From an uncultured Clostridia bacterium (lineage in GTDB: Bacteria; Bacillota; Clostridia; TANB77; CAG-508), in the NCBI GenBank assembly GCA_963557965.1, contig CAUWEX010000004.1:649-64648 (forward strand): a DNA stretch of 64,000 bases, in the 5' to 3' direction. Both the position numbers and the translations under genes were made by a program. The notes under the pieces are model-generated. The model was not told where the DNA came from, searched no databases, and worked only from the letters and a program-made list of their open reading frames with translations. This document shows, piece after piece, positions 5,947 through 41,922 of the stretch (the stretch's first letter is position 1; each line of letters starts with the position of its first letter).

Positions 5947-7242
<1,296 letters not shown>

Positions 7243-27917: not shown

Positions 27918-28001
27918 GCGGATGTGGCGGAATTGGTAGACGCGCTGGTCTTAGGAACCAGTGCCAACGGCGTGGGGGTTCAAGTCCCTTCATCCGCACC
28001 A
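27918..28001 (+). tRNA. tRNA-Leu (anticodon UAG), class II with long variable arm; integration target of the island
   Basis: Acceptor GCGGATG/CATCCGC, anticodon stem CTGGT/ACCAG with loop CTTAGGA, long variable arm, T-loop TTCAAGT, encoded CCA. Promoter TTGACA...TGcTAATAT lies upstream. Confidence 0.9.
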
Positions 28002-28181
28002 TAAGAAAAATCGATGTAAGTAGCTTGTATCTGAGGATACAGGCTACTTTAACGTTTGGTAACTAATAAATTTATTGTATAATTTCTAATATTTATTTTT
28101 CACTAGAGCCACAAGGGATTTCACGATTTTTAATTTTTATTAATTTTTTGTAGTAAAAACTGTTCACTCAACAAAAATTGA
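27989..28181 (+). repeat. attL-side direct repeat (tRNA 3' end plus ~180 bp downstream)
   Basis: ttcatccgcaccataagaaaaatcgatgtaa...cactcaacaaaaattga recurs at 41625-41817 with only a handful of substitutions. Confidence 0.9.
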
Positions 28182-28311
28182 CTATTTTGTACATGTAAAC
28201 TACAGAGTATAGTTGTTTGAAAAAACGTTGAGTGAAATCTCTGAAGTGCAGTAGAATAAATGATTTTAGCGGTTGGAGTTGTTGAGTGAACGTGTAATAT
28301 TATTTAATTTT

Positions 28312-29526
28312 TTATAATTCTTTTTCACTTTCTGCTAATTGTTTTGGCTGATTTAAAGCTAAATTTTCTCTTAAATAATATTGATTTACTTTATCAATTT
28401 CATTTTCCTTAAATTTATCAAAAACAGAAGTATATGTATTTAAAGTAATACTAATATCTTTATGCCCCATAAGTCTTTGAACTACAACGGGAGCCATACC
28501 GCTTTCAATACATCTTGTTCCGAAAGTATGTCTTAAACTATGAGTAGAAATATCAGTAATATTAAACTCTTTTTTCAATATTCTTTTTAGCTCATTATTA
28601 ACATTAGAACGTCTAACATATTTACAATTTAGAGGCTTAAATAACAACTTTTCATCATTGTTTATTTGGGTATTGGCAATTTGCATTTGCTCAACAATAT
28701 ATGGGTATAAAAAATCAGGAATAGGCAATATTCTTTTTCCAGCATATGTTTTAGTTTTATTACCCATTATAACATTTCCGATTTCATCGATTGATAAAGT
28801 TCTATGAACATTGATCTTTTTATGTTGCAAATCAATATCATGAGTAGATAGGGCAAGAGCTTCACCGACACGCAACCCCATATACATTTGAATTAAAAAT
28901 ACATTTCTGTATTTATATTTATCTACAGGCTTATTAATTAACCAATGTGTGAAGTTTTGTTGTTCTTCTACTGTGAGTGCTCGAACAATTTTATCTTCCT
29001 TACTACTTTGAGGTCTAATAACATTAAGCATAGGATTTCTCATTATATAACCTTTATCCATTGCTATTTTAAAAGCTTGGTTTAATTGTTGATAAGCTTT
29101 TTTTATCATAGAATTACTTAGGTTATCTTTTAGAGAAGTTAGGTATGCTTGTAATTCTTCTGAAGTGATATCAGATATATTTTTATTACCAAAAGATGTT
29201 TTTTCTAAATTTTGAATTGTAATAAGAACCCTACCGTATTGAGAAGCAGATATTTGATTAGTATCTCTTTTTAAGTTTAAATTTTGTTTAAGAAGTTCAC
29301 ACATAGGTATTCCATGGTGTTCGATATATAATGCGTTTCCTTTTTGATACATAATTGTACTTAAATATTTTTTTGCTTCTTCCTCTGTTTTAAAACTTTT
29401 GGTTCGTCTTACGGTTTTTCCTTTGTTTACATCATATTCATAAAATTGTGCTAACCAATTTTTTCTTTGCTTATTAAAATATATAGAACCTTCACTACTT
29501 CCTTTAATAGGCATATTATACACCAC
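28312..29526 (-). CDS. int: Tyrosine-type site-specific recombinase/integrase
   Basis: C-terminal catalytic region LRVGEALAL, HSLRHTFGTRCIESG and LMGHKDISITLNTYTS (R..HxxR..Y). Confidence 0.92.
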   Translation of the reverse strand: MVYNMPIKGSSEGSIYFNKQRKNWLAQFYEYDVNKGKTVRRTKSFKTEEEAKKYLSTIMYQKGNALYIEHHGIPMCELLKQNLNLKRDTNQISASQYGRVLITIQNLEKTSFGNKNISDITSEELQAYLTSLKDNLSNSMIKKAYQQLNQAFKIAMDKGYIMRNPMLNVIRPQSSKEDKIVRALTVEEQQNFTHWLINKPVDKYKYRNVFLIQMYMGLRVGEALALSTHDIDLQHKKINVHRTLSIDEIGNVIMGNKTKTYAGKRILPIPDFLYPYIVEQMQIANTQINNDEKLLFKPLNCKYVRRSNVNNELKRILKKEFNITDISTHSLRHTFGTRCIESGMAPVVVQRLMGHKDISITLNTYTSVFDKFKENEIDKVNQYYLRENLALNQPKQLAESEKEL

Positions 29527-29785
29527 CTTTTCTATTCATTTTCCAAAGTAGATATGCTGCTAAAGTTATAGTTTTTCTTTTGCCAATATTAATACTTGGA
29601 AAATCTTGTTGTTTAAATAAGTCGTATGCCTGGTTTATTCCAATATGTAAATCTTTTGAAACATCTTGAACAGATAACATAGCAAAAGGGTTAGTTACTT
29701 TACTTAAATAATTTATAATAATTTGCTTACTTAAATTTGTATTATCTTGTGTATCAATTATATTTAAATTGTGTGTATTATTCAT
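29516..29785 (-). CDS. xis: Excisionase-type HTH DNA-binding protein (Xis-like)
   Basis: MLSVQDVSKDLHIGINQAYDLFKQQDFPSINIGKRKTITLAAYLLW fits the excisionase/HTH_17 pattern. The gene overlaps the int start. Confidence 0.7.
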   Translation of the reverse strand: MNNTHNLNIIDTQDNTNLSKQIIINYLSKVTNPFAMLSVQDVSKDLHIGINQAYDLFKQQDFPSINIGKRKTITLAAYLLWKMNRKGGV

Positions 29786-30359
29786 TTCTATTATCTCCGT
29801 TTCTATTAGATTTTAATAAATTAGCTAATATTAGTTCCAAATTAGAAAGAACATTAATTAGGCTTATTTCAAAATTATGATTATTAATATTTTTAAAATA
29901 ATTTTCTCTACTTCGACTTTCTTCAAAATCTCTTTCATATACTGATGAGACTTTTTGATTATTAGCTTGAGAAATATACAAAGTAGCTGAAGGGGGAAGA
30001 GGACTTTTATTTATTAAGTCTTTAGTAAACCATATAATATCTTCTTGTGATAACGAATTAAATTCACGTTCTTGAGGGTCAATATTTACGAGTATGAGAT
30101 CTCCTCTAATACTTCTAAAAGGCAGCACAATATTAGCTTTTCTATATTTCATTAATTTACTGTTATTACAAATTATATAAGAACCTTCATAAGGGATAAT
30201 ATCAAGATTTCTTTTTACAATTGCTTTTTTTAGAGTAGATATATTTTTTATAATTTTTACATGTGGAGTTTGACCAACTTTTTTATATATAACTCTAACA
30301 GGAAAGCTATTACGCGATTTATTAAGAAGTCGTGTAGATATTTCTTTTTTATTCATCAC
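29778..30359 (-). CDS. Hypothetical protein, DUF3846-like N-terminal domain
   Basis: VRVIYKKVGQTPHVKII...IICNNSKLMKYRKANIVLP...IRGDLILVNID...SLSQEDI resembles the DUF3846 pattern seen on conjugative/mobilizable elements. This is recalled from memory, not searched. Confidence 0.4.
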   Translation of the reverse strand: MMNKKEISTRLLNKSRNSFPVRVIYKKVGQTPHVKIIKNISTLKKAIVKRNLDIIPYEGSYIICNNSKLMKYRKANIVLPFRSIRGDLILVNIDPQEREFNSLSQEDIIWFTKDLINKSPLPPSATLYISQANNQKVSSVYERDFEESRSRENYFKNINNHNFEISLINVLSNLELILANLLKSNRNGDNRNE

Positions 30360-30763
30360 ATTTTACCACCTTGTTGTATTTTATTAGCTTTATATAAAAG
30401 TTCTAAGTTATGTTTAAAATGAGCTATACCTTTTGAACGTAATTTGATAACTTGGTTTTTAGATAATTGTAAGTTTTTACATATATCATTTAGCCTAAGA
30501 TTTTCTATATAAGAGAGATATAGTACTTTTCTTTCGATAAGTGGAACGATTTTCATTGCTAAATAATAAGTTTCATTTGTAAAGATATTTTCTAAATGAT
30601 TGATATTAACATCTGCATTATTTACTTTTTCCATTGAATTTTTATAATAGTTATTTTCTATCATCTGTACAATTGCTTCTGTTTCGAGAACTGTTTCAAC
30701 AATTGAATTAAATTCTTTTCTATCTTTTGTTGGTTGTACGTTTTTACTTTTTTGATTTTTCAT
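30356..30763 (-). CDS. Sigma-70 region-4-like small regulator (Tn916 Orf7-like)
   Basis: LSYIENLRLNDICKNLQLSKNQVIKLRSKGIAHFK is a region-4 HTH. The position upstream of xis-int matches Tn916-family regulatory modules. Confidence 0.6.
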   Translation of the reverse strand: MKNQKSKNVQPTKDRKEFNSIVETVLETEAIVQMIENNYYKNSMEKVNNADVNINHLENIFTNETYYLAMKIVPLIERKVLYLSYIENLRLNDICKNLQLSKNQVIKLRSKGIAHFKHNLELLYKANKIQQGGKM

Positions 30764-31102
30764 TTTCTAAAACCTCTTTTCTAAAATTTAGATTTCTAGA
30801 AATCTTTTTGTTGTTCGAACTGGCTATATAATAAACTAAATAACTGCTAAAATGTATTTTTGTAAGGTTTTTCACTAAAATGTATGAATTTGTAAGGAGA
30901 AGTAAGAGTTTGTAAGAACATGTAAGAAAACAAAGAAAATGTAAAGACTGGAAAGGTGCTAAAACAAGCATGGTGCAGCGATTTTTTTTAATGTTTTACG
31001 ACAAAAAATAAAAAATGCCTAAAACCTAGTCTATAACTAAGTTCTAAGCATTTTGGCTGTTAATGATATTATATAAATATTTGAAAGTATTATTGATATA
31101 TT

Positions 31103-31822
31103 TTATATATTTTCAAAATCATATGTATCTGTAATATCAAGATACAATATATTAGTTTTATTTAAGGTTTCTTTTTCTACATCAGTAATTTTTAGTTTTT
31201 CTAATAATTCGTCTGTAAATGCTATATCATCTTTTGATAGAATACATTTTCTAATACTAGGCACATATTCGCCATTGGTACAATGGAAAGTTCCTAACAT
31301 TAATTTATTAGTACCATCAACTATATTTACTATAAGATGTGAAAGTTCAAAACGTAAGTTGTTTTCTTTGTGATTTTCAAAAACAAATGTTGCTATGTGG
31401 TGGTCCGCTTGTAAGTATCCTGATAGATAAATGAAGTCTGTTTTATAGTCTAAAAAATCTACTTTGCACATATCAGGCTTTTGTGTGAGTTTTAATTTGA
31501 AGCGTGCTTTTGCATATTTCTTTGATTTTGGGTAATATGCGATATAGTATAAATAAAGCATATCAGTTTCAAATGGGTTTATACTAGTTTCACTATTATT
31601 AATTTTTCTTTGACTATTAAAAAGTTCATATTCATAAATTCCTAATGTATCACATATTAGAGAAATGTGTTCAGCATTTGGAATAATTTCGCCATTTTCA
31701 TATCTAGCAATTGTAGCTGTAGTTTTTCCAATAGCCATTGCTAGATTTTCTTGACTAAGCCCTTTGAGCTTTCGATACTTTTTAATATTTTGACCAAAAT
31801 CTTTACTATTAAAACAAGACAT
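31103..31822 (-). CDS. XRE-family HTH transcriptional regulator with C-terminal uncharacterised domain
   Basis: N-terminal IKKYRKLKGLSQENLAMAIGKTTATIARYENGEIIP is a Cro/C1-type HTH. Confidence 0.85.
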   Translation of the reverse strand: MSCFNSKDFGQNIKKYRKLKGLSQENLAMAIGKTTATIARYENGEIIPNAEHISLICDTLGIYEYELFNSQRKINNSETSINPFETDMLYLYYIAYYPKSKKYAKARFKLKLTQKPDMCKVDFLDYKTDFIYLSGYLQADHHIATFVFENHKENNLRFELSHLIVNIVDGTNKLMLGTFHCTNGEYVPSIRKCILSKDDIAFTDELLEKLKITDVEKETLNKTNILYLDITDTYDFENI

Positions 31823-31888
31823 AAGATCACCTCATAAATAAGTTATAATAATATTATAACACAGGTAGACATAACATTACAATAAAAA

Positions 31889-31917
31889 TTGAAATATTTA
31901 CCATAATATGGTATAAT
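31889..31917 (+). promoter_or_regulatory. Near-consensus sigma-A promoter with extended -10 (TTGAAA-17-TGgTATAAT), divergent from the XRE regulator
   Basis: TTGAAA 31889-31894, 17-nt spacer ending in TGG, TATAAT 31912-31917. A hairpin terminator GGGAGAAA/TTTCTCCC at 32167-32186 lies ~255 nt downstream. Confidence 0.6.
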
Positions 31918-32323
31918 TAAATTACTATATAGTAAAAGGAATGGCAAAAGCTGTTTTACAAGTTGCAATACTTGTGTTCAATAATGATTTGAAGTTCAAG
32001 AATTGCAACTGCTCGTACACCTCGAGATATGCTAAACTTTGTTATCTTCTCTTAATCATAATTGGATTTTTGCTTATAGAATATAAGAGAGAGGAGAGTA
32101 ACAGATGGAACATGAATTTTGTATTGGTGGACGGAAGCCCAGGAGCTTAAGCCGTTCGACAGTAAAGGGAGAAATAATTTTCTCCCAATATTTTTGTGAT
32201 AAGTAATTAGATAAAATTTAATCAATTACTTGTTTTTTAGTAGGATATATAGTATAGTAGAATTTATAGGAAATGAGAATAAGCAGATGTGGTTTGCCTC
32301 CTACATAAGAGGAGGTGAGGCGT

Positions 32324-32446
32324 ATGGTAGAAGTACAAGTATTATTATTAATAATTAAATTACTTTTTGCTGGTCTAGTATCAGTAACTATCATTGCGTT
32401 TGCCTTGATTATAGCAATAGTTGTAATTATTAGCAAACAAAAATAA
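32324..32446 (+). CDS. Type I toxin-like hydrophobic peptide (40 aa), not in the ORF track
   Basis: MVEVQVLLLIIKLLFAGLVSVTIIAFALIIAIVVIISKQK. Strong SD AGGAGG (32310-32315) is paired with upstream CCTCCT (32297-32302) in a 6-bp hairpin. Promoter TTGTTT-17-TATAGT at 32230-32258. Confidence 0.5.
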   Translation: MVEVQVLLLIIKLLFAGLVSVTIIAFALIIAIVVIISKQK

Positions 32447-32524
32447 CCAATAAAAAAACACATCTGTAACTTGTGAAGTGCACCCAAAAAATTAGACAAA
32501 AAATCTAATTTTGGAGGTGCATTT

Positions 32525-33052
32525 TTGATGTCAAAAAAAATATATACAACAGACATTAAATTACAAGTAGTAAAATATGTCGTTGATGAGAAACATTCAA
32601 TAGGTGAAGCAGTTGAACATTTTAAAATTCCTTATCAATCAATGAGAATGTGGATAAAACACTACGAGCATATTGGTATAACGGGATTATCCATAAAAAA
32701 TGAAAAATATACTGGTGCTTTTAAGGTTTCTGTAGTAAAATATATGTATGAAAATAAATTATCTTTAGTTGCAACAGCAGTACATTTTTCAATACCAGAC
32801 CATACTATTGTAAGAGCTTGGAAAAAAATATATGATAATAAGGGACCTATGTATCTACTGCAAGAGCAACGAGGAAGGTCTAAAAAAAGTAAAATGAAAT
32901 CAAAAAAAGTGAAGAAGATTAAAGAGGAAAATAACTTAACAGAAAAAGAATTATTGAAAAGAATACAATATTTAGAAACGGAGAATGCTTACTTAAAAAA
33001 ATTGAATGCCTTAATTCAAGAGAAGGAAAAATCAAAGAAAGAGATAAAGTAA
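32525..33052 (+). CDS. IS3-family transposase OrfA (HTH plus leucine zipper)
   Basis: HTH N-terminus and a C-terminal heptad region LLKRIQYLETENAYLKKLNALIQEKE. Slippery heptamer A AAA AAA at 32995-33001. Confidence 0.9.
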   Translation: MMSKKIYTTDIKLQVVKYVVDEKHSIGEAVEHFKIPYQSMRMWIKHYEHIGITGLSIKNEKYTGAFKVSVVKYMYENKLSLVATAVHFSIPDHTIVRAWKKIYDNKGPMYLLQEQRGRSKKSKMKSKKVKKIKEENNLTEKELLKRIQYLETENAYLKKLNALIQEKEKSKKEIK

Positions 33053-33084
33053 AGACCATCAATGAATTAAGGCAAAAATATAAT

Positions 33085-33906
33085 TTGATGGTATTATTAA
33101 AAATTGCTGGAGTAACTAGAAGTACATTCTATTATCATTTGAATCGAATGAAAGAACCGGATAAATATAAAGAAATTAAAGAAGAAATAAAAACAATATT
33201 TTTCGAGAATAAAGGAAGATATGGATATAGAAGAATATTATTAGAATTAAGAAATAGAGGATTTAATATAAATCATAAAACAGTATTAAGGTTGATGAAA
33301 GAATTAGGTTTAAAGAGTATTCAAAGACCTAAAAGGAGATATAATTCATATAAAGGAACCATAGGAAAAATAGCTGACAATATTCTAAATAGGAATTTTA
33401 ATGCAGAAAAGCCTAATGAAAAATGGGTTACTGATGTAACAGAGTTTAAGATAAATAATGAAAAACTTTATTTATCACCTATTATTGATTTATTTAATGG
33501 AGAGGTAATAAGTTATAATCTTTCACGACATCCTGTATTTCAACAAGTAGTTGATATGATAGAAAAGGCATTTAAAAAAATACCTGACAATACAAACCTA
33601 ATCCTACATTCAGACCAAGGTTGGCAATATCAAATGAAACAATATCAGAATATGCTTCAAGAAAAAGGTGTTAGACAAAGTATGTCAAGAAAAGGAACTT
33701 GTTTAGATAATAGCTTAGCAGAGAATTTTTTTGGAATATTAAAATCAGAATTGTACTATGTTAAAGAAAAAGAGTACAATAGTGTAGAAGAATTAGAAAA
33801 AGATATAATAGAATATATAGAGTATTATAATAATAGGAGAATAAAGAGTAAACTAAAAGGAATGACTCCTGTTCAATACAGAATTCATTCCCAAAATGTT
33901 GCTTAA
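33085..33906 (+). CDS. IS3-family transposase OrfB (DDE/rve catalytic domain), expressed as an OrfAB -1 frameshift fusion
   Basis: WVTDVTEF...HSDQGWQY...DNSLAENFFGILKSE is the DDE(K) pattern. The -1 frame is open from the slippery site (KKIECLNSREGKIKERDKVKTINELRQKYNL) into this ORF. Confidence 0.9.
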   Translation: MMVLLKIAGVTRSTFYYHLNRMKEPDKYKEIKEEIKTIFFENKGRYGYRRILLELRNRGFNINHKTVLRLMKELGLKSIQRPKRRYNSYKGTIGKIADNILNRNFNAEKPNEKWVTDVTEFKINNEKLYLSPIIDLFNGEVISYNLSRHPVFQQVVDMIEKAFKKIPDNTNLILHSDQGWQYQMKQYQNMLQEKGVRQSMSRKGTCLDNSLAENFFGILKSELYYVKEKEYNSVEELEKDIIEYIEYYNNRRIKSKLKGMTPVQYRIHSQNVA

Positions 33907-33947
33907 TACTAAATCAAAAAAATGTCCAATTTTTTGGGTTCAGTACA

Positions 33948-34012
33948 CTTGGCGGTTCAATGTGTTTTTTTAACATATAACTGGCAAACCACTTTGTGGT
34001 TTCTCCATTTCC
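33948..34012 (-). ncRNA. Candidate antitoxin sRNA, convergent to the type I toxin, driven by a perfect consensus promoter
   Basis: Minus-strand TTGACA (34043-34048), 17-nt spacer, TATAAT (34020-34025). The predicted RNA ggaaauggagAAACCACaaaGUGGUUUgcc... runs toward the split terminator. GGAG-AAACCAC is complementary to GUGGUUUgcCUCC in the toxin 5' UTR (32288-32300). Confidence 0.35.
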
Positions 34013-34281
34013 TATCTTTATTATATACAACTTTTTTATTATTGTCAAATAATATTCAAATTATATTTTTGTGTTACGTAAAACGTAATATTTTGTAATT
34101 TTAATATATTGTTATGGTATTTTAACTAAATTATAAAAAATAATATAAAAATGAACCTAAAAATTTGCACAAGAGGCAAAAACTATTGCATCTTATGCAA
34201 ATTTATTAATTTTGAAAAATATATGTAAACCTGTTATATTCATAATACTAAAATATAGGTAAATTGAATATACTATAGGGG

Positions 34282-34638
34282 ATGTTAAAATTGGAAACAA
34301 CAATAGTAATTTATAATATAATAAGAAAACTAGGAATAATACCTACACTAAAGGGGAGTAAGTTATTAGTAAAAGCAATTGAAATTCTAATAGCTAATGA
34401 AAATGAATTTATTGTTTTTGAGGATTTATATAAAATAATAGCCATGCATTATAGCCACTCTAATAGTGTACAAATTAGAAATGCAATTAAATATGCAATA
34501 GATAATAGAGATGAAAACAAAGCGATTACAAATTTTGAAAAGATTTTTGGTTATGAATATAGCCCATATTATTTTACTAATAAAACTATAATAGAAGAAA
34601 TTGCAAGAATAATAAGAATAGGGGATATTCTTACTTAG
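34282..34638 (+). CDS. Stand-alone Spo0A C-terminal (DNA-binding effector) domain protein, no receiver domain
   Basis: IIRKLGIIPTLKGSKLLVKAIEILI...LYKIIAMHY...VQIRNAIKYAI...FEKIFGY...TNKTIIEEIARII follows the Spo0A_C pattern (GVP.HlKGy.YL..AI, LY..IA, RAIRHAI, LFGY, TNSEFIA). Confidence 0.7.
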   Translation: MLKLETTIVIYNIIRKLGIIPTLKGSKLLVKAIEILIANENEFIVFEDLYKIIAMHYSHSNSVQIRNAIKYAIDNRDENKAITNFEKIFGYEYSPYYFTNKTIIEEIARIIRIGDILT

Positions 34639-34751
34639 AATTTTTTATATAATGTACTAAAAAAGAAATAATCGAAAAATGTTGACAAATTTGAAAGGCT
34701 TGTATAAAATAAATATGTAAAAAAAAAGAAACAAAAGAGGATGAATAAAAA

Positions 34752-34880
34752 ATGAAAGAAACAACTGATGCAAGCCTTGTGGCTGTAAGAGAGAGAGAGA
34801 GAGAGAGCTATACTTTACTAAATCAAAGAATAGCTTTAAAAATAGATGTTTTAAAAAGGATAGCAATAGAACCTGAATAA
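34752..34880 (+). CDS. Hypothetical 42-aa ORF containing an (AG)10 microsatellite, with its own promoter and terminator
   Basis: Promoter TTGACA 34682-34687, 17-nt spacer, TAAAAT 34705-34710. RBS AGAGGA. MKETTDASLVAVRERERESYTLLNQRIALKIDVLKRIAIEPE. Terminator aacctgaataaatcaggttttt. Coding status is uncertain. Confidence 0.3.
   Translation: MKETTDASLVAVRERERESYTLLNQRIALKIDVLKRIAIEPE
34788..34807 (+). repeat. (AG)10 dinucleotide microsatellite
   Basis: agagagagagagagagagag read directly. It is the only long dinucleotide tract I noticed in the window. Confidence 0.95.
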
Positions 34881-35035
34881 ATCAGGTTTTTGTTGCTGTC
34901 TTTTTTCGTGAGAAAAAACAAGTTAGTGAGTAGCAATGCTAAAAAGTAGAGTTCAAGCTAAAACTTATTTTCTCATATAAAATAGTTATTAAATTTTTAA
35001 ATTTTAAAATATAAAAAAATAAAGGAGGAAAAAAC

Positions 35036-36265
35036 ATGAAAGAAAAATTAAAAGGAAGGAAAGGTATTACACTAATTGCGTTAGTAATAACACTAATCGT
35101 GTTATTAATTTTAGCGGGTGTATCTATAGCAATGCTAACAGGAGAAAATGGAATATTAACACAAGCAACAAGTGCAAAAGAAAAAACAGAAAAGGCGGGA
35201 ATAATAGAAAGGGCACAAACAGACTTATTAGGACAACAAGTAAAAACAACAGATGGACAAGTAACTAAACCAATGTTAAAGGCAGTACTGGATACATATT
35301 TTAGTGATGTACCTGAAGCAGATGCAATAGAGTTAAGTACAGAACTAACATCTAAAGAAGGAAATTATAAAATACAAGTATCAGAAATTTATAATGGAAC
35401 ATTTGGAACAGGGGAAAAGCCAACAGGAGGAATATCAAGTTCAGAAATAGCAAATGCAGCAGATAAAAGCGAATATTATGGAGCGATAGTAAATGGGTAT
35501 GAACTACCAAGTGGAACAAATACAGATGTAAAATGGAAAATATTTTACGCAGATGAAAGTAATATTTATTTAATAGCAGATAATTATGTAGAAAAAGTAA
35601 ATTTACCAAATAGTACAACAGAAGCAGGGGTAACGATAGAGGGAGCAAACCACAAGCCAAATGATGGAAATAGCAGTTATCCGAGAGCAGCATATTTTAG
35701 TAATATACTAGGAGATTATGCCGGTTCAGCAAGGATAACAGACAGAAAATTAAAAGCATTAAATAATAGCTATTTTAATGAAAATAATTTTACAAGTACA
35801 AATAATAATATGAAATCAGTAGCATATATGATGGATACAAACGCTTGGAACAGTAAATTTAAAGATGTAAATAATAAGGCAGAATATGTAATTGGTGGAC
35901 CAACAGTAGAAATGTTAATGAAATCATATAGTCAAAAACATGGAGTAGATTATCAAGCAAGGGCAGAAAATGCTACAGGATATAAAATAAGTAACGATGG
36001 AGGAACAAGCTGGGAATATTATTATTCAGGAATGTTAGATACAAGTGATAGCTTATATGTAATAAGCTCACAGAGCGATGCTTATGGAATGTGGGTGGCT
36101 AGTCCCTCTGCCGATGGCGCTGCCTATGTAATGAGTGTGCGCTGCAGCGGCGGTGTGATCTATAGCAGCTATATCAATGACTACTATGGGTTCCGTCCGC
36201 TAGTTTCTCTAAAATCTGATGTCCAACTTCAAAAAAATGAAGACGGAACATATACAATACTATAA
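35036..36265 (+). CDS. DGR target protein: pilin-like N-terminus plus C-terminal C-type-lectin-fold (DUF1566/FGE-like) variable domain
   Basis: MKEKLKGRKG-ITLIALVITLIVLLILAGVSIAML N-terminus. C-terminus WVASPSADGAAYVMSVRCSGGVIYSSYINDYYGFRPLVSL is encoded by the VR, which matches the TR. Confidence 0.9.
   Translation: MKEKLKGRKGITLIALVITLIVLLILAGVSIAMLTGENGILTQATSAKEKTEKAGIIERAQTDLLGQQVKTTDGQVTKPMLKAVLDTYFSDVPEADAIELSTELTSKEGNYKIQVSEIYNGTFGTGEKPTGGISSSEIANAADKSEYYGAIVNGYELPSGTNTDVKWKIFYADESNIYLIADNYVEKVNLPNSTTEAGVTIEGANHKPNDGNSSYPRAAYFSNILGDYAGSARITDRKLKALNNSYFNENNFTSTNNNMKSVAYMMDTNAWNSKFKDVNNKAEYVIGGPTVEMLMKSYSQKHGVDYQARAENATGYKISNDGGTSWEYYYSGMLDTSDSLYVISSQSDAYGMWVASPSADGAAYVMSVRCSGGVIYSSYINDYYGFRPLVSLKSDVQLQKNEDGTYTIL
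36092..36208 (+). other. DGR variable region (VR)
   Basis: 117 nt colinear with TR 37167-37283. There are 22 differences, every one at a TR adenine, plus one C/T difference near the 3' edge after the GC-rich gggttccgtccgctag block. Confidence 0.93.
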
Positions 36266-36338
36266 GATGGGCGAAAAAATAAAAAATAAAGAATAGTGGG
36301 AACAGGCCTAGTGTCTGTTGCCACTAAAGGGGTTATAA

Positions 36339-36788
36339 ATGAGTGTTATAAGTATGGCAAGAGATATAAAAAAGGTTCATCCAAATGATACTGTAATGTA
36401 TAAGGTGGGAAACTTTGTACAAGCATTTGGAAAGGATGCATATGTATTATCTTATATATTCGACTATAAATTGAGAAATACCAAAGATAATATCCAAACA
36501 TGCGGATTTCCTAAAAATGCTATACCAAAAGTTATGAGCAAATTAGAACAAAAGAAGGTTAATTATATCATTATAGATACAAGGAATAATTATGAAGTTG
36601 ATGAAACTTTTGACAATAAAAATTTAAATAGTTATGAAGAAACAAGTAAAAAAGCTCAAAAGTATATAAAAATAAAGAAAAGAATTCAAAAAATAGAAGA
36701 AGAGCTGGTTGCTAATATGGATAGTATAAAAATAATGGATAAGATAAGAAAGATAGAAGAAATCGTATATGAAAACAGAAAAGTTTAA
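36339..36788 (+). CDS. DGR accessory protein with MutS domain-I-like (mismatch-binding-like) fold, MSL type
   Basis: YKVGNFVQAFGKDAYVLSYIFDYKL...TCGFPKNAIPKVMSKLEQKKVNYIIID parallels MutS domain I (GDFYELFxxDA...GVP...Y...L...GxKVAIcEQ). The Phe-x-Glu motif reads F-V-Q. Coiled-coil tail. Confidence 0.6.
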   Translation: MSVISMARDIKKVHPNDTVMYKVGNFVQAFGKDAYVLSYIFDYKLRNTKDNIQTCGFPKNAIPKVMSKLEQKKVNYIIIDTRNNYEVDETFDNKNLNSYEETSKKAQKYIKIKKRIQKIEEELVANMDSIKIMDKIRKIEEIVYENRKV

Positions 36789-37116
36789 AGTAATCCAATT
36801 TATTAGGGAATTATTAATTATTATAGATAAAAACATGGATAATTTTCCTAAAAAAGATATCGAATTAAAAAATCGAATAAGAAGTAACACATATGACCTA
36901 TTAGAGATTGCATATGAAGCTAATAGCATAGAAGATGTTAATATAAAAAATCAGCTATTAAATAAAATGATAGCAAAAATAAAAGTAATAGATTTCTTAC
37001 TAAATTTAACATATGACAAACAAATTATAACGGAAAAGAAATATTATAAACTTGGAAACAAACTTGATGATATAATAAAATATATCACTGGCTGGAAAAA
37101 TGCACTTAAAAAATAG
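36769..37116 (+). CDS. avd: DGR accessory variability determinant (Avd; four-helix bundle, 23S rRNA IVS protein family)
   Basis: 115 aa; NMDNFPKKDIELKNRIRSNTYDLLEIAYEAN...KYYKLGNKLDDIIKYITGWKNAL fits the Avd pattern. Lies immediately upstream of the TR. Confidence 0.8.
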   Translation: MKTEKFKVIQFIRELLIIIDKNMDNFPKKDIELKNRIRSNTYDLLEIAYEANSIEDVNIKNQLLNKMIAKIKVIDFLLNLTYDKQIITEKKYYKLGNKLDDIIKYITGWKNALKK

Positions 37117-37166
37117 GGTATGGTTGAATGCGTGAAAGCTCATTGCGTTTGAGGTTCGTTTTTGTT

Positions 37167-37283
37167 TGGGTGGCTAGTCCCTCTGCCAATAACACTAACA
37201 ATGTAATGAATGTGAACTACAACGGCAATGTGAACAATAACAACTATAACAATAACAACAATGGGTTCCGTCCGCTAGCTTCT
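37167..37283 (+). other. DGR template region (TR), AAY-codon rich
   Basis: tgggtggctagtccctctgcc aat aac act aac aat gta atg aat gtg aac tac aac ggc aat gtg aac aat aac aac tat aac aat aac aac aat gggttccgtccgctagcttct. Same strand as the VR. Confidence 0.93.
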
Positions 37284-37446
37284 AAAAAACTGTGGTTATA
37301 TCTACTATGGTAGAATAAGAGAAGGTTTAGATAGAAACAAACCATGTCCATTAGTTAAGACATTAACTATAAAATATAAAATAGATAATTAAATTTGTTA
37401 GTAGGTATTATTATATTCGAAAGGGAACTTAATTTAGAACTGTTTT

Positions 37447-37476
37447 AAGTAGTACATTTGATTGTACTACTTTTTT
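37447..37476. terminator. Bidirectional hairpin terminator shared by the TR transcript (+) and the RT gene (-)
   Basis: aagtagtaca tttgat tgtactactt is a perfect 10-bp stem followed by a T run. The RT stop codon (37467-37469) lies inside the stem. Confidence 0.75.
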
Positions 37477-38432
37477 AACGTAAATAAATTATTTCTATTG
37501 GATAAACTTTGATAACACCTTAAGCTAGAAATAAAACTTCCAAGAGGAATTTTATTACTTTTATATAATTTATATCTACTCTTTAATTTTCGTTTGACAT
37601 TTCTATATCTAGCATATTGAAAATTAGAATTTCGACCTAAAAATAAAAAATTATTAGTATTTTTATATATCCTGGTTTTTATATTTAATTCTAGTTTTTC
37701 TTTTTCTAAAAAATTTGTGATTTCAGATAAGCAATATTTCAAATAGTCTTTTGAAGGATGAAACAACAAAAAATCGTCTTGGTAACGCACATAATATTTA
37801 ATCTTTAGAGTTTCTTTTATAAAATGGTCTAAATCGTTCAAATAAAATATAGCTAAAATTTGACTAGTCATAGAACCAATAAATAGACCTTCAGTATTGC
37901 TATCAATAATATCAAATACAATTTTGATTGCATCTTTATCTTTTATTCTTCTTAATAGTTTTTTCTTTAAAATATCATGATTAATATTAGAAAAAAATTT
38001 ACTAATATCACATTTTAGAATATAGTATGAACCATATTTAATTTTACATTTTTTATGAAAAGAAGCTGCTAATTCTAGGCCCTTACTAGTTCCCATATCT
38101 TTTCTACTAGCTACATTAACGTCAAGTAAACAAGGTAAAATTGCAGGATATAAAATGTATCTTGCTACTAAGTGATTAACAATTTTATCTTGTACATTTT
38201 GACTTACAATTAATCTTTTTTTGGGTTCGTAAATAATGAATTTATTATATGGTCCTATTTTATATTGTTTGTTTTTTAATATTTCATGAATTCGTGAGAT
38301 ATAAATTGATTTATATTCTTTTAAATTTTCTACTCTTCTTTCATTGCGTGTATTTTTGCAAACTTCATTATAAGCAGAAATAATATTATTAAAATTATAG
38401 ATATTAGAATATAAATTTCCTTTTCTTTTCAT
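37467..38432 (-). CDS. DGR reverse transcriptase
   Basis: RT motifs including LFIGSMTSQILAIFYLN (DGR-type [I/L]GxxxSQ) and YVRYQDDFLLF (YxDD). 321 aa. Adjacent to the TR but on the opposite strand. Confidence 0.9.
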   Translation of the reverse strand: MKRKGNLYSNIYNFNNIISAYNEVCKNTRNERRVENLKEYKSIYISRIHEILKNKQYKIGPYNKFIIYEPKKRLIVSQNVQDKIVNHLVARYILYPAILPCLLDVNVASRKDMGTSKGLELAASFHKKCKIKYGSYYILKCDISKFFSNINHDILKKKLLRRIKDKDAIKIVFDIIDSNTEGLFIGSMTSQILAIFYLNDLDHFIKETLKIKYYVRYQDDFLLFHPSKDYLKYCLSEITNFLEKEKLELNIKTRIYKNTNNFLFLGRNSNFQYARYRNVKRKLKSRYKLYKSNKIPLGSFISSLRCYQSLSNRNNLFTLKK

Positions 38433-38505
38433 ATGTAACTCCTATAGAACTAATTTACAACTTTAAATATATAACATTATATGTAAGATATTAACAGCTA
38501 ATATC

Positions 38506-38534
38506 ATTATAAGATAGTTAGATATAATATGCAA
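38506..38534 (-). promoter_or_regulatory. Sigma-A promoter for the RT gene (TTGCAT-17-TATAAT on the minus strand)
   Basis: Reverse complement reads cTTGCATattatatctaactatctTATAATg. AGGAG RBS precedes the RT ATG. Confidence 0.6.
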
Positions 38535-38641
38535 GACAAATGGCAAAAATTGTTAAACAATAAATTTACGATAATTAAAGAATGTTAAATAATTAATAAA
38601 ATTATAGTAATTTAACGTAAAAATGTGTTATAATAGTAGAA

Positions 38642-38734
38642 CCACATCCAATAACAAAAGCAGATTATGAGAATAATTCGAACCCTTTTGTACAAGAAGT
38701 AATGAATACGGGAATTGAACTAAAAGTAGCATGA
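38642..38734 (+). pseudogene. 3'-terminal remnant (31 codons) of a second MNT-type nucleotidyltransferase gene
   Basis: PHPITKADYENNSNPFVQEVMNTGIELKVA* parallels the C-terminus of the MNT at 41190-41516 (LPFSIEEYNEPKGIMEEILNTGIELKVA*). It is preceded directly by a copy of the promoter repeat (aaaatgtgttataat). Confidence 0.7.
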
Positions 38735-38775
38735 GAAACAAAAAAGACGACTAGCAATGCTAGCCATCTTTTTTG

Positions 38776-39705
38776 TTATCTATCGAAAGTTTTTATAAAA
38801 TTATCAACTAAAGATTTAAAAGTATGTATAGGAAAATTAAATAGGTGTTTTATAACTTCGAAAGTTTTATCAATATAATTCTTTAGGTTATGATTTTCCT
38901 GTTTTAAAGTAATATTTTCTTTTTGTAGATTTTCTACTTTATTTATAGCAAAATAGGCTTTGCTTAGTTGTAATTTTAATTTATTATTATTTTCAATTAA
39001 AGTTTGATTTTGCTTAAGTAATAAATGTGTATCTTGTGTAGGAATACATTGTTCTTGTTTATTTTGTAGTTCATATTTTATATTATCATAATTAGTAACT
39101 TGTTTTAATGTTTTTATTGGGATATGGACATTATCTTTAGTATTGCCGCGTTCTAAATCAAAACCATGTTCAATCATATAAGTATAAAAACTGTCTTGTA
39201 ATTTCCTATAACTGTCTTTGCCTTTCCAATATTGACTACAAGCAATTTTTTTAATAGGATTACCATTTTTATCTTTTGTATGAACAACTGGAACAAAAAC
39301 CAAGTGTAAATGTGGAGTGGTTTCATCCATGTGAACTTTGCTAGATAAAATATATTTTTCACCTAAATTTTTATAATTTGCAACAAAGTTATGAGCAGTT
39401 TGAAAATATCTTTTTGTTTCTTCTTCTCCAATACTTTTGAAAAAGTCGTTATCAGAAGTAATTATAAATTCACATACTACGTTTGTTGTTTTTATTATTC
39501 TTCCTTGTAAGTTATTTTCCTGTATTAATTTTTTTAGTGCATTTGAATATGTAGTGTTACACTGTTTAATTGAATAATTTTTTATTAAATTATTTTTACT
39601 AATATCTTTGTTTGAGTAATTAGTATTTTTTCTTTCGTTATGTTTATATAATCCTGCTAAATTATCTTTCTTATAATTAGCATTTCTAATAATAGCATAA
39701 CTCAT
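38776..39705 (-). CDS. mob: MobV-family (Pre/Mob) relaxase
   Basis: N-terminal MSYAIIRNANYKKDNLAGLYKHNERK and the HxDE...PHxH motif (VHMDETTPHLHLVFVPV). C-terminal coiled coil. Confidence 0.88.
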   Translation of the reverse strand: MSYAIIRNANYKKDNLAGLYKHNERKNTNYSNKDISKNNLIKNYSIKQCNTTYSNALKKLIQENNLQGRIIKTTNVVCEFIITSDNDFFKSIGEEETKRYFQTAHNFVANYKNLGEKYILSSKVHMDETTPHLHLVFVPVVHTKDKNGNPIKKIACSQYWKGKDSYRKLQDSFYTYMIEHGFDLERGNTKDNVHIPIKTLKQVTNYDNIKYELQNKQEQCIPTQDTHLLLKQNQTLIENNNKLKLQLSKAYFAINKVENLQKENITLKQENHNLKNYIDKTFEVIKHLFNFPIHTFKSLVDNFIKTFDR

Positions 39706-39808
39706 TTTTTTATTTTTCCTTTTCTATAGATTGCCTTCGAAGGCTTACTTAAATTAAAATACCCCATTTGATTTTCTTGAATAAACTTTTTTTAGTTTCT
39801 AACATACT

Positions 39809-39853
39809 AGAACGTCGCGGACGTTCTGTATGGTCAGGGAAAATACTTTTCCC
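39809..39853. promoter_or_regulatory. Candidate oriT: two adjacent GC-containing hairpins upstream of the relaxase gene
   Basis: AGAACGTC gcg GACGTTCT (39809-39827) and AGGGAAAA tac TTTTCCCT (39835-39853), in otherwise AT-rich DNA ~100 bp upstream of mob. Confidence 0.45.
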
Positions 39854-40007
39854 TAACAACCCTTTTTAGAAAGATAAATAATAAAATTCTTACGAAGTTT
39901 ATCAATTATCTTTCTTTGCACGATTAATATTTAATTTATTTCGCTTACGCTACATAAATAAAATATTTTAATCGTGTTATAAAAATATTCGCTTTTAAGC
40001 TCATATT

Positions 40008-40114
40008 TTTATAATTGATTTTGCAAGCTAAAGCTAGCAAAATTTGATAAGCATTTTCTTTGTGGTACGTAATTATTAATAATTTTTAGTAATTTATTTT
40101 AATTTTTTATAATT
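40008..40114 (+). repeat. Cassette-flanking repeat, copy R1 (longest), upstream of the ParE module
   Basis: tttataattgattttgcaagc...tttctttgtgg...attaataatttttagtaatttattttaattttttataatt. Shared with 40828-40903, partly with 41521-41565 and degenerately with 38586-38636. Confidence 0.8.
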
Positions 40115-40201
40115 ATTATTAATTTTTCAATAATAATAAAAAAATATGGCAATTTAAAATAAAAATGTGATATAATATATAACATAGGAGATGATGTTAT
40201 T

Positions 40202-40453
40202 ATGACAATGAAACAACAAGAATTGTATGATGTTATTGAAAGTTTACCAGAAGAACTTTCAATAAAAGCAATTGATTATATAGAATACCTAAAATTTACT
40301 TATTCATTTATTAAAGCTCCAAGCGACCTAATTGTAAAAGATGAAAAAGACTTATTAGTAAAACTACAAAAAGGTATAAAAGATACTGAAGAAGGGAAAG
40401 TATGTTCTGTTGAAGAAGCTTTTGCAGAAGTTAATGAAATCTTATTAGGTTAA
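40202..40453 (+). CDS. Type II antitoxin partner of ParE (family not assigned)
   Basis: 83-aa acidic protein immediately upstream of, and translationally adjacent to, the ParE-like toxin. Confidence 0.6.
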   Translation: MTMKQQELYDVIESLPEELSIKAIDYIEYLKFTYSFIKAPSDLIVKDEKDLLVKLQKGIKDTEEGKVCSVEEAFAEVNEILLG

Positions 40454-40470
40454 GATAGGAGGTTTTTATA

Positions 40471-40785
40471 TTGGACAAGTATAAAGTAGAATTATCAATA
40501 CAAGCAAAAAATGATTATAAAAGTATTATTCATTATATAAAGTATGAATTATTAGAACCTACTATTGCAGAAAAATATGCTAATCTAATAAGAAATGAGC
40601 TTACTTCTTTAGAATATCAACCTAGTAAATTTTCTATTATTGACCATAATGAGATTAAAAAATATCAGTTTAGAAAATTAGTTATGAAAAATTATATTGC
40701 GTTTTATCGTATTAATGATAAAGATAAGATAGTGAATGTTGAGAGAATTTTATATAATGCTAGTAATTGGATGGATAAATTATAA
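40471..40785 (+). CDS. parE: Type II toxin, ParE/RelE superfamily
   Basis: 104 aa; YKVELSIQAKNDYKSIIHYI...FRKLVMKNYIAFYRINDKDKIVNVERILYNASNW fits the ParE pattern. TTG start after AGGAGG. Confidence 0.75.
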   Translation: MDKYKVELSIQAKNDYKSIIHYIKYELLEPTIAEKYANLIRNELTSLEYQPSKFSIIDHNEIKKYQFRKLVMKNYIAFYRINDKDKIVNVERILYNASNWMDKL

Positions 40786-40827
40786 AAAATTTATGTTAAT
40801 TTTATAAAACTAAACAGTTAATTTAGC

Positions 40828-40903
40828 TTTATAATTGATTTTGCAAGCAATTTCTTTGTAGTTATTAATAATTTTTAGCAATTTATTTTAATTTTTTATA
40901 ATT
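40828..40903 (+). repeat. Cassette-flanking repeat, copy R2, abutting the truncated HEPN ORF
   Basis: tttataattgattttgcaagcaatttctttgtagttattaataatttttagcaatttattttaattttttataatt. It lacks the internal hairpin segment of R1. Confidence 0.8.
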
Positions 40904-40917
40904 TTTATCAATTTTTT

Positions 40918-41214
40918 ATGTGCCAACAAGCTATAGAAAAGTTAAGCAAAGGTATATACGTATATACTTTCGATAAAGAAGCACCATTTACTCATAATAT
41001 TAACGTTATTTTAAAAGATATCGATAAAGTTATAAATTCGATTGAGTATAAAAAATTTGAATCTTTATTTGCAACTTTAACATCATTTTATATAATAGGT
41101 AGATATGATGTATATAAACAAAAAATTTCAAAAGATTTAGATAATAAATCTAGCAAAGAATTATTAAATAAATCAAAGGAGGCGTTTGTATGGTTAAAGT
41201 CCCTTCAAACATAA
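40918..41214 (+). pseudogene. HEPN-domain protein (toxin of a HEPN/MNT pair), apparently N-terminally truncated at repeat R2 and lacking an RBS
   Basis: Begins CQQAIEKLSKGIYVY...THNINVIL...IIGRYDVY, i.e. mid-way through the usual first HEPN helices. No SD precedes the ATG (atcaattttttATG). Overlaps the MNT start. Confidence 0.55.
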
Positions 41215-41516
41215 TTAAATTAATTGAAAAATTTATTAAATTACTAAAAGAAGAAAATATAGTGGTTGAAAAAGTAATTCTATTTGGTTCTTATGCTAAG
41301 GGAACATATAGAGCAGATAGTGATATTGACTTGGCAATTGTCTCTCCTAACTTTAAGGAAGAAGATTGTATTGAAAATATGACATTTCTATTATGTAAGG
41401 CTAACATACTAAAGGCAGATATTCAAACTTTGCCTTTTAGTATAGAAGAATACAACGAACCTAAAGGGATAATGGAAGAAATTTTGAATACTGGAATAGA
41501 ACTTAAAGTTGCATAA
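41190..41516 (+). CDS. MNT-type nucleotidyltransferase (antitoxin of the HEPN/MNT type VII module)
   Basis: VILFGSYAKGTYRADSDIDLAIV is the GSxxxGxxxxxSDxD Pol-beta NTase motif. Confidence 0.85.
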   Translation: MVKVPSNIIKLIEKFIKLLKEENIVVEKVILFGSYAKGTYRADSDIDLAIVSPNFKEEDCIENMTFLLCKANILKADIQTLPFSIEEYNEPKGIMEEILNTGIELKVA

Positions 41517-41520
41517 GGCA

Positions 41521-41565
41521 ATATTAATTAGTATTAATTTTTAGTAATTTATTTTAACTTTTTTC
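41521..41565 (+). repeat. Cassette-flanking repeat, partial copy R3
   Basis: atattaattagtattaatttttagtaatttattttaactttttt matches the core of R1/R2. Confidence 0.7.
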
Positions 41566-41624
41566 GACAAAACGCTTAACTTAACAAGAATAGCTGAAAG
41601 TGTTAGAATAGGCGATATAGTTCA

Positions 41625-41817
41625 TTCATCCGCACCATAAGAAAAATCGATGTAAATAGCTTGTATCTAAGGATACAGGCTATTTTAACGTTTGGTAACT
41701 AATAAATTTATTATATAATTTAAAATATTTATTTTTCACTAGAGCCACAAAGGGTTTCACGATTTTTAATTTTTATTAATTTTTTGTAGTAAAAACTGTT
41801 CACTCAACAAAAATTGA
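41625..41817 (+). repeat. attR-side direct repeat (copy of the tRNA-Leu 3' end plus downstream 180 bp)
   Basis: Matches 27989-28181. Differences include a compensatory pair in the hairpin (aGtagc..gctaCt vs aAtagc..gctaTt). Confidence 0.9.
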
Positions 41818-41922
41818 TCCATTTACGTACATAAAAAATAATAATTTAAAATTAAGAAAAAATAAATAGACTATTCATAAAAATAGTGTATAATATAAAG
41901 AAGGGGTAAAAAGGAGCGTAAA

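Follow-up and report, generated by a model that had tools for sequence, protein, structure and literature searches.

The stretch of DNA analyzed here (the window) is 64,000 nucleotides (nt) from an uncultured Clostridia bacterium (contig CAUWEX010000004.1 of GenBank assembly GCA_963557965.1, positions 649 to 64,648), and it holds an integrative mobilizable element (IME) of 13.6 kb (27989-41637) that very likely entered the gene for tRNA-Leu(UAG) at its 3' end. The element is bounded by direct repeats of 193 bp, whereas the attachment (att) repeats of IMEs are usually 8-60 bp long (PMC5704250). Overall, our data argue strongly for an explanation in which the long repeat is composed of a short recombination core and the relic arm of an earlier, related element, which we call E0. 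A previous reading of the sequence alone (the first-pass annotation) had already proposed an IME in this tRNA gene bounded by 193-bp repeats, and the integrase, the MobV relaxase, and the empty site described below bear this out. That annotation had also implied a very long att core. This part did not hold, as the core is 31 nt at most and the remainder is made up of a family arm in one copy and, very probably, a relic arm in the other.

The target tRNA and the direct repeat

The tRNA-Leu(UAG) gene that was the integration target lies at 27918-28001 on the + strand (ARAGORN; Rfam tRNA, 59 bits). A repeat search returned a single direct-repeat pair, at 27983-28181 and 41619-41817 (199 nt, 95% identity, spacing 13,636 nt). 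Alignment and per-position comparison of 27989-28181 with 41625-41817 revealed 8 substitutions in 193 nt, in keeping with the few substitutions reported in the first-pass annotation. Position 27989 is the start of the final 13 nt of the tRNA (27989-28001), and this 13-nt end occurs twice in the window. The two repeat copies are identical over their first 31 nt and over their last 63 nt. The substitutions between them (left/right copy) are 28020 G/A, 28033 G/A, 28047 C/T, 28077 G/A, 28086-7 CT/AA, 28115 G/A, and 28118 A/G. The 193-nt repeat occurs twice in the whole genome (1.34 Mb, 28.5% G+C), and such a pair is far beyond chance.

In the left copy (27989-28181, + strand), the first 31 nt (27989-28019) are the attL core, which is identical in attL, attR, and the empty site, and the DNA from 28020 on belongs to the present element, being the start of its integrase-proximal (P') arm. 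In the right copy, 41625-41637 (+ strand) is the attR core, that is, the displaced chromosomal 3' end of the tRNA, as located by the repeat alignment and the search with the 13-nt end. The 180 nt that follow (41638-41817, + strand) very probably represent a resident relic, the first 180 nt of the P' arm of E0. Weak similarity possibly extends to ~41847, and one contig from the public sequencing run X1 and the homology to the related genome G007 both start at ~41840-41848.

An empty site and the position of the crossover

Independent assemblies of the same species were found by exact-protein look-ups of both flanking genes. One of these, a conspecific contig of 202 kb (L109) that is 99.77% identical to the window over 9.9 kb, has the site empty. 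Its order is a 64-amino acid (aa) open reading frame (ORF), tRNA-Leu, 285 nt, and the VTT gene. The first-pass annotation had anticipated that an empty site should read tRNA-Leu followed by the sequence from 41818 onward, and L109 reads in this way, with one copy of the repeat in between. All 8 polymorphic positions of that copy are in the attR state, and the occupied and empty sites differ by exactly the element and one repeat copy. The same element was present in L111 and in L117/L118 (99.98-100% identity), and the junction of attR with the VTT gene was identical in 23 of the 24 contigs that carry the last gene of the element. The element is a discrete insertion whose presence or absence is polymorphic in the population, and the attB site of the species held the 180 nt after the tRNA before the present element arrived.

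These comparisons bear on whether the repeat could be a local segmental duplication, a product of gene conversion, or an assembly artefact, in each case unrelated to site-specific integration. The genome is an assembly of 42 contigs resembling a metagenome-assembled genome (MAG), which would favor an explanation of this kind. However, the same junctions were found in L111, L117, and L118, in the 23 of 24 contigs just mentioned, and in run X16, and the empty site, with its difference of exactly one repeat copy and the element, contradicts it. We give this explanation almost no chance of being correct.

Since L109 carries the attR alleles from 28020 on, the crossover lies within 27989-28019. Logan contigs of eight public runs were also placed on the locus; none of these was long enough to reach across the empty site or a circular junction. 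In a variant of the element from run X16, 1 nt is deleted at 28005 in attL, and attR has no such deletion. This places the exchange within 27989-28004, that is, in the last 13 nt of the tRNA and the 3 nt after it. The working core is at most 31 nt long, and probably at most 16 nt.

One other contig, L110, was set aside as a probable chimera joined at the conserved tRNA, or as an unrelated island. From position 7138 it has tRNA-Leu, then DNA of higher G+C content, a strong terminator, an rve fragment, and genes for a sugar ABC transporter.

Origin of the repeated 180 nt

That the block stands in the empty site of L109 is what would be expected if the 180 nt were native to the tRNA-Leu flank and had been captured by an ancestor of the element (e.g., by imprecise excision). 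attP and attB would then share a single identity block of 193 bp, with no earlier element involved. Comparison with relatives points in another direction. In a search of 60 relatives, matches at the tRNA-Leu locus of congeners end at the end of the tRNA. The tRNA-Leu of genome G007 has a different terminator and other genes downstream, as does that of genome G034. The 180-nt block was matched elsewhere in the relatives, on contig 54 of G007 and contig 171 of genome G026. On the G007 contig, it separates tRNA-Gln(ttg) from an integrase that is 79% identical to that of the window, and the same gene order follows.

A survey of integrases at 80 loci, from MAGs of uncultured gut Clostridia, showed that the 310-nt spacer between tRNA and integrase is conserved (70-82%) in ~28 of them, always between the stop codon of the integrase and the 3' end of the tRNA. 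The related integrases beside this arm are 65-83% identical to that of the window, and the tRNA genes targeted are Gln(ttg), Tyr(gta), two different tRNA-Met genes, and Leu(tag); more distant integrases were found at tRNA-Pro, Arg, and Ser. By maximum likelihood, the integrases group into clades that each have their own target tRNA, yet the arm and its hairpin are common to the clades. The Leu clade, formed by the integrase of the window and that of locus L056, is sister to the Tyr and Gln clades with a support of 99/100. No other tRNA in this genome has the family hairpin as its terminator. Because the block occurs beside related integrases at other tRNA genes and is absent at the tRNA-Leu of congeners, it is the P' arm of an element family and not native tRNA-Leu flank. 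The proposal that the element carries the tRNA 3' end, the terminator, and flanking DNA was, therefore, right as to the tRNA end, hairpin, and arm, and wrong in that the 180 nt are not chromosomal flank.

At another locus, L048 (~5044-5100, from a rabbit-gut MAG), the integrase and arm stand beside just a 9-nt fragment of the tRNA-Met end, with non-tRNA DNA before it. This P-core-P' arrangement could be either the assembled circular form or a tandem array.

Remnants of the earlier element

A 68-kb contig from another sample (L119) has the right end of the same IME (98.97% identical) and the core, followed by 148 nt of the resident arm with all alleles of the attR type. Past this arm, and in the same orientation, come sequences that match 30732-31015 (89% identity) and then 34640-34839 (89.6%) of the present element, up to the end of the contig. 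Judged by this similarity, the DNA past attR in L119 is a second, decayed, related element, E0, in tandem with the present one. Further observations argue for an earlier occupant of the site. At L035, a sibling locus in tRNA-Gln, the repeat is ~380 nt and its distal copy reaches into the integrase gene, of which it holds the final five codons and the stop; no integrase was found after that copy. In another strain (L112), the integrase at the site studied here is reduced to its C-terminal part and rearranged, and decay is under way there.

Repeat lengths in the family are 28, 53, 61, 61, 87, 193, and ~380 nt, and every repeat starts within the 3' part of the tRNA, 9-13 nt (in one case 53 nt) from its end. 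A fixed left and a variable right boundary fit a fixed crossover combined with random end points of deletion. In the window, the repeat copies differ by 5% over 28020-28181, in comparison to only 0.2% between the chromosomal flanks of different strains. The relic, therefore, comes from a different lineage of the family and is not a recent copy of the present element.

Several observations weigh against this history. No remnant of an integrase gene accompanies the relic in the window, and a third core was not found past it, so the origin of the relic from an element is argued from comparison and not from its own content. It ends (41817) close to where conservation of the arm across the family fades, and its last 63 nt are identical to the arm of the element, which could indicate a functional boundary or gene conversion rather than a random deletion end. 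The L119 contig ends inside E0, and its host may be of another species. No excision or circular form of the element was seen, and the attR/attP junction was absent from two scans of JGI metagenome contigs. In addition, contigs from runs X1 and X2 have a different flank. These have a P arm and core identical to those of the window (41532-41637), then a flank that starts AATGTAGTAATATCAAGGCCC... (AATGTAGTAATATC...) in place of the relic arm, and their cargo to the left of 41532 differs from that of the window. They possibly represent the element in another host or at another site; the flank in X1 had no match in 200 genomes of the genus with 3 mismatches allowed.

The lack of an integrase remnant and of a third core, and the coincidence of the end of the block with the end of family-wide conservation, would also be compatible with a native flank captured by the element. 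However, besides being missing from the tRNA-Leu loci of congeners, the block adjoins related integrases in other species, at four tRNA genes other than tRNA-Leu, its resident copy in L119 runs into element-like DNA, and the equivalent copy in L035 holds integrase codons. A native origin of the 180 nt thus seems to us very improbable.

It is also conceivable that the relic originated as described, and that the present element entered or re-entered the site by RecA-dependent homologous recombination across the 193 bp. At 96% identity overall and with two fully identical tracts (31 and 63 nt), a stretch of this length would suffice for such an event. However, the exchange occurred in the first 31 of the 193 nt (the first 16 in X16), the integrase gene is intact, and the position of integration is no different in members of the family whose repeats are short (28-61 nt). 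Homologous recombination is disfavored because the exchange lies where all repeats of the family begin, and we regard it as very improbable. Site-specific integration beside the relic of E0 remains the account that we prefer.

Other sites in the same genome also have pieces of the family arm. Where the end of contig C36 is joined to an end of contig C17 (C17:31550-31598, - strand), the only part of the family arm after tRNA-Gln(ttg) is the hairpin (AATAGCTTGTATC-taag-AATACAAGCTATT). There is no integrase nearby, and the hairpin is followed by a paralogue, 80% identical, of the DNA upstream of the target gene of the diversity-generating retroelement (DGR) described below. This hairpin is probably another, more eroded stub. 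At C10:3672-4835, a tRNA-Met (3' end CTTCGCTACCA) adjoins an unrelated integrase, 26% identical to that of the window, and at C6:27005-27062 a 16-nt fragment of the tRNA-Met 3' end is followed by the family hairpin. The C6 site has the appearance of the distal end of another island that overlies an old stub of the IME family.

The hairpin after the tRNA

A conserved 14-bp hairpin, terminator-like on the tRNA-sense strand, lies at 28018-28049 (stem 28018-28031/28036-28049, + strand), with a second copy at 41654-41685. Its folding energy is -22 kcal/mol (z -6.3) on the + strand and -16 kcal/mol on the - strand. The first-pass annotation had pointed to two substitutions that compensate each other within a putative tRNA terminator hairpin, and our comparison agrees that they compensate. 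Positions 28020 and 28047 pair in the stem, as G-C in the left copy and A-T in the right, so that the pairing is preserved by a genuine compensatory change; the substitution at 28033 falls in the loop. Among 27 aligned copies from the family, 97.9% of the cells of the 14-bp stem are paired. Both partners have changed in two of the stem pairs, the one at the base (A-U, G-C, or U-A) and one in which three sequences have C-G in place of U-A. The stem often has U.G or G.U pairs, which are tolerated on the tRNA-sense strand only. Most family members have a T-rich tract, TTTTATTG, after the stem. The tract of the copy in the window is weaker (TTTAACGT), and for this reason a simple terminator scan missed the hairpin. 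A search of the arms with Rfam found nothing except the tRNA.

The best reading of this terminator-like RNA fold, with its compensatory changes across the family, is that it is an intrinsic terminator of the tRNA transcript that is borne by the element and would also shield the convergent integrase gene. The hairpin may have a second role, such as protein binding, as the stem is more conserved than a terminator needs. We also considered the hairpin as the crossover site, with its inverted repeat around a spacer of 4-8 nt, and rejected this because the loop differs between attL and attR and the alleles of the empty site put the exchange to its left. The U.G pairs, which indicate an RNA constraint on one strand, contradict it as well.

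Just past the hairpin, the arm has a promoter-like sequence, TTGGTA-16-TATAAT (28056-28083 and 41692-41719). At attR and in the empty site it is directed toward the VTT gene.

Arms and gene content of the element

The ORFs of the element were scanned for domains with Pfam, PHROGs, and NCBIfam. The tyrosine integrase gene (28312-29526, - strand; PF00589, 6e-27) adjoins attL and is convergent with the tRNA. Its residues R219, H329-x-x-R332, H355, and Y365 are invariant in pairwise alignment, and the integrase family has one copy in the genome. A match to Arm-DNA-bind_4 (3.7e-4; 20.5 bits, under the cut-off of 22.3) suggests that the protein has an N-terminal arm-DNA-binding domain. The 89-aa product of the gene that overlaps the start of the integrase (29516-29785, - strand) is a candidate excisionase based on its position, and has no family match in Pfam, PHROGs, or NCBIfam. 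Of the int-xis pair that had been read beside the tRNA, the integrase is thus confirmed and the excisionase is a candidate.

The P' arm (28002-28311, + strand) is the 310 nt between the tRNA end and the integrase stop codon, and includes the hairpin. The P arm (41517-41624, + strand) lies between the last gene of the element and the core, and is identical in L117, L118, and L119. A motif scan found TCACTCAACAA three times in the P' arm, at 28164 (+), 28225 (-, degenerate), and 28279 (-), and a degenerate copy in the P arm at 41577. The arms of L035 and G007 have the same arrangement of motifs, and these are candidate arm-type sites that the N-terminal domain of the integrase may bind.

Next to the integrase and candidate excisionase is a regulatory module (29778-31822, - strand) that, according to the domain scans, encodes a DUF3846-like protein, a small sigma region-4-like protein, a 75-aa ORF, and an XRE-type helix-turn-helix (HTH) protein (HTH_3, 4e-15). 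The sigma region-4 matches of the small protein are weak and all fall under the curated cut-offs. An insertion sequence (IS) of the IS3 family follows (32474-33939, limits approximate, + strand; HTH_Tnp_1 and rve; orfA 32525-33052, orfB 33085-33906). It is a recent insertion into the element, and is polymorphic: joins without the IS were seen in L112 and in Logan contigs from runs X1, X2, and X16 (32455 joined to 33993). The contig of L111 is broken within the IS. A 118-aa protein that consists of the C-terminal DNA-binding domain of Spo0A only (PF08769, 3e-11) is encoded at 34282-34638.

The cargo also includes a DGR (35036-38432), with its target gene at 35036-36265, variable repeat (VR) at 36092-36214, bAvd gene at 36769-37116, template repeat (TR) at 37167-37289, and reverse transcriptase (RT) gene at 37467-38432. 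The RT gene (RVT_1, 6e-16) is on the opposite (-) strand, convergent with TR; the bAvd match (4e-9) is under its cut-off. In the TR/VR core, 25 of 25 mismatches are at TR adenines, so that the features of a DGR are all present, namely RT, an Avd-like gene, and a TR/VR pair that differs solely at the adenines of TR. The target protein has a prepilin-like N-terminus, and the 5' region of its gene has many paralogues in the genome. An ORF resembling MutS domain I (MutS_I) lies between the target gene and avd. The DGR of the element is complete, and would act on a pilin-like protein.

The MobV relaxase gene is at 38776-39705 on the - strand (Mob_Pre, 2e-40; NCBIfam MobV NF041497, 122 bits against a cut-off of 100). 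As the first-pass annotation had noted, the region upstream of mob is rich in hairpins, and its several inverted repeats make 39830-40045 a candidate origin of transfer (oriT). Two pairs of toxin-antitoxin type, an 83-aa ORF with ParE and HEPN with a nucleotidyltransferase, complete the gene content (40202-41516, + strand; Pfam scans). No VirB4, coupling protein, or other family of a type IV secretion system (T4SS) was found with Pfam in the 22 long non-nested ORFs (>=58 aa) of 28312-41516, a set from which short ORFs nested on the opposite strand were left out. The lack of mating-pore genes among these ORFs makes this an IME rather than an integrative and conjugative element (ICE), as had been proposed. 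The element has its own recombinase at one end, att direct repeats and an empty site, a relaxase, and no set of T4SS genes.

Housekeeping genes flank the element. On the left are recG and the 64-aa membrane ORF, and on the right are the genes for the VTT-domain protein and a TrmA-like methyltransferase. Farther right, also amid housekeeping genes, a gene at 44123-45064 matches the helical domain of 5-hmdU DNA kinase (PF18723, E 9e-109), and was also found in the empty-site strain L109. This helical-domain family is known from the hypermodification of phage DNA.

Proposed history of the site

We hypothesize that the tyrosine integrase recombines at the extreme 3' end of the tRNA, with the crossover most likely in the 13-nt acceptor-strand/CCA segment. 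The attP site of the element would be composed of a P arm of ~110 nt, a short core matching the tRNA, and the P' arm of 310 nt. Upon integration, the tRNA would be rebuilt from its chromosomal 5' part and the element's copy of the last 13 nt. It would also be given the hairpin of the element, which probably stops transcription of the tRNA from running antisense into the integrase gene. In this history, E0 would have occupied the same tRNA earlier and decayed by deletion, leaving the first 180 nt of its P' arm behind. The present element would then have integrated at the intact core, and its own arm (attL) and the relic arm (attR) would together appear as a long repeat of 96% identity. The repeat would have its 193 bp, rather than a length in the usual range, because the site already held the arm of E0. 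Since the resident stub amounts to a P' arm cut short, attB has the formal structure B-core-P'*, and attR comes close to a complete attP. Transfer to other cells may proceed via the MobV relaxase and oriT, with the mating pore borrowed from a co-resident conjugative element.

A more speculative idea, which we consider unlikely, is that the stub serves as a pre-formatted landing pad (B-core-P') of higher affinity that favors recolonization by relatives, with core, hairpin, and first arm-type site forming a portable cassette. Such a cassette could be retargeted to a new tRNA via a change of ~11-13 nt alone. Many repeats of the family reach far enough to include the hairpin (49-72 nt in L062, L096, L106, and L057). 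The landing pad would explain this frequent retention, as well as the hairpin-only stubs after the tRNA-Gln and the tRNA-Met fragment in this genome.

Significance and comparison with known systems

The history proposed above explains a long att repeat without unusual recombination chemistry, and public data show the one site in empty, occupied, decaying, and tandem states. Accretion and decay are a known and ordinary process, which is unusually clearly documented at this site. Our survey also defines a previously undescribed IME family in uncultured gut Clostridia with small genomes, with at least 7 tRNA targets. For annotation, the lesson is that the length of a repeat is not the length of the core, and that short arm stubs after tRNA genes mark past occupancy.

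The closest likeness is to the IMEs of Firmicutes, such as those of streptococci, with a tyrosine integrase and a MobV relaxase that reside at tRNA 3' ends (PMC5704250, PMC5357655). Like the element in the window, these have the int/xis module next to the tRNA at one end, a direct repeat that includes the tRNA 3' end so that the gene stays intact, a MobV relaxase and oriT without mating-pore genes, and toxin-antitoxin cargo. Unlike them, the element described here is from uncultured gut Clostridia, has a repeat of 193 bp and DGR cargo, and belongs to a family that shares a hairpin-bearing arm across at least 5 tRNA targets.

Integration, decay to a cis-mobilizable element (CIME), and then accretion of a second element have been described for ICESt1/ICESt3 of Streptococcus thermophilus and for IME_Sag2603_tRNAlys, which lies beside a decayed ICE (PMC5704250, section 2.3). 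The same three steps are proposed here, with the tandem state seen in L119 only. The older element at the present site differs from a CIME in having lost its distal att site too, and its 180-nt arm stub lengthens the repeat without being cis-mobilizable. As the core occurs just twice in the window, with no third copy, and the relic gives way to chromosomal DNA, it falls outside the definition of a CIME.

The first-pass annotation had described the regulators as Tn916-like. The XRE protein (HTH_3) and a weak sigma region-4 match were found, but the features of a Tn916-like element were not. Only the weak sigma region-4 protein and the XRE protein resemble the Tn916 regulatory pair; the element has no conjugation genes, and its candidate excisionase has no match to Tn916-Xis.

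In Haemophilus phage HP1, an identity block of ~180 bp shared by attP and attB covers tRNA genes, and this block is DNA of the host tRNA operon carried by the phage. Both systems combine a tyrosine integrase with att identity that extends far past the crossover around the 3' part of a tRNA. They differ in the source of the shared DNA, as in HP1 it is host DNA carried by the phage, whereas the block past the tRNA in the window is very probably element DNA left in the host.

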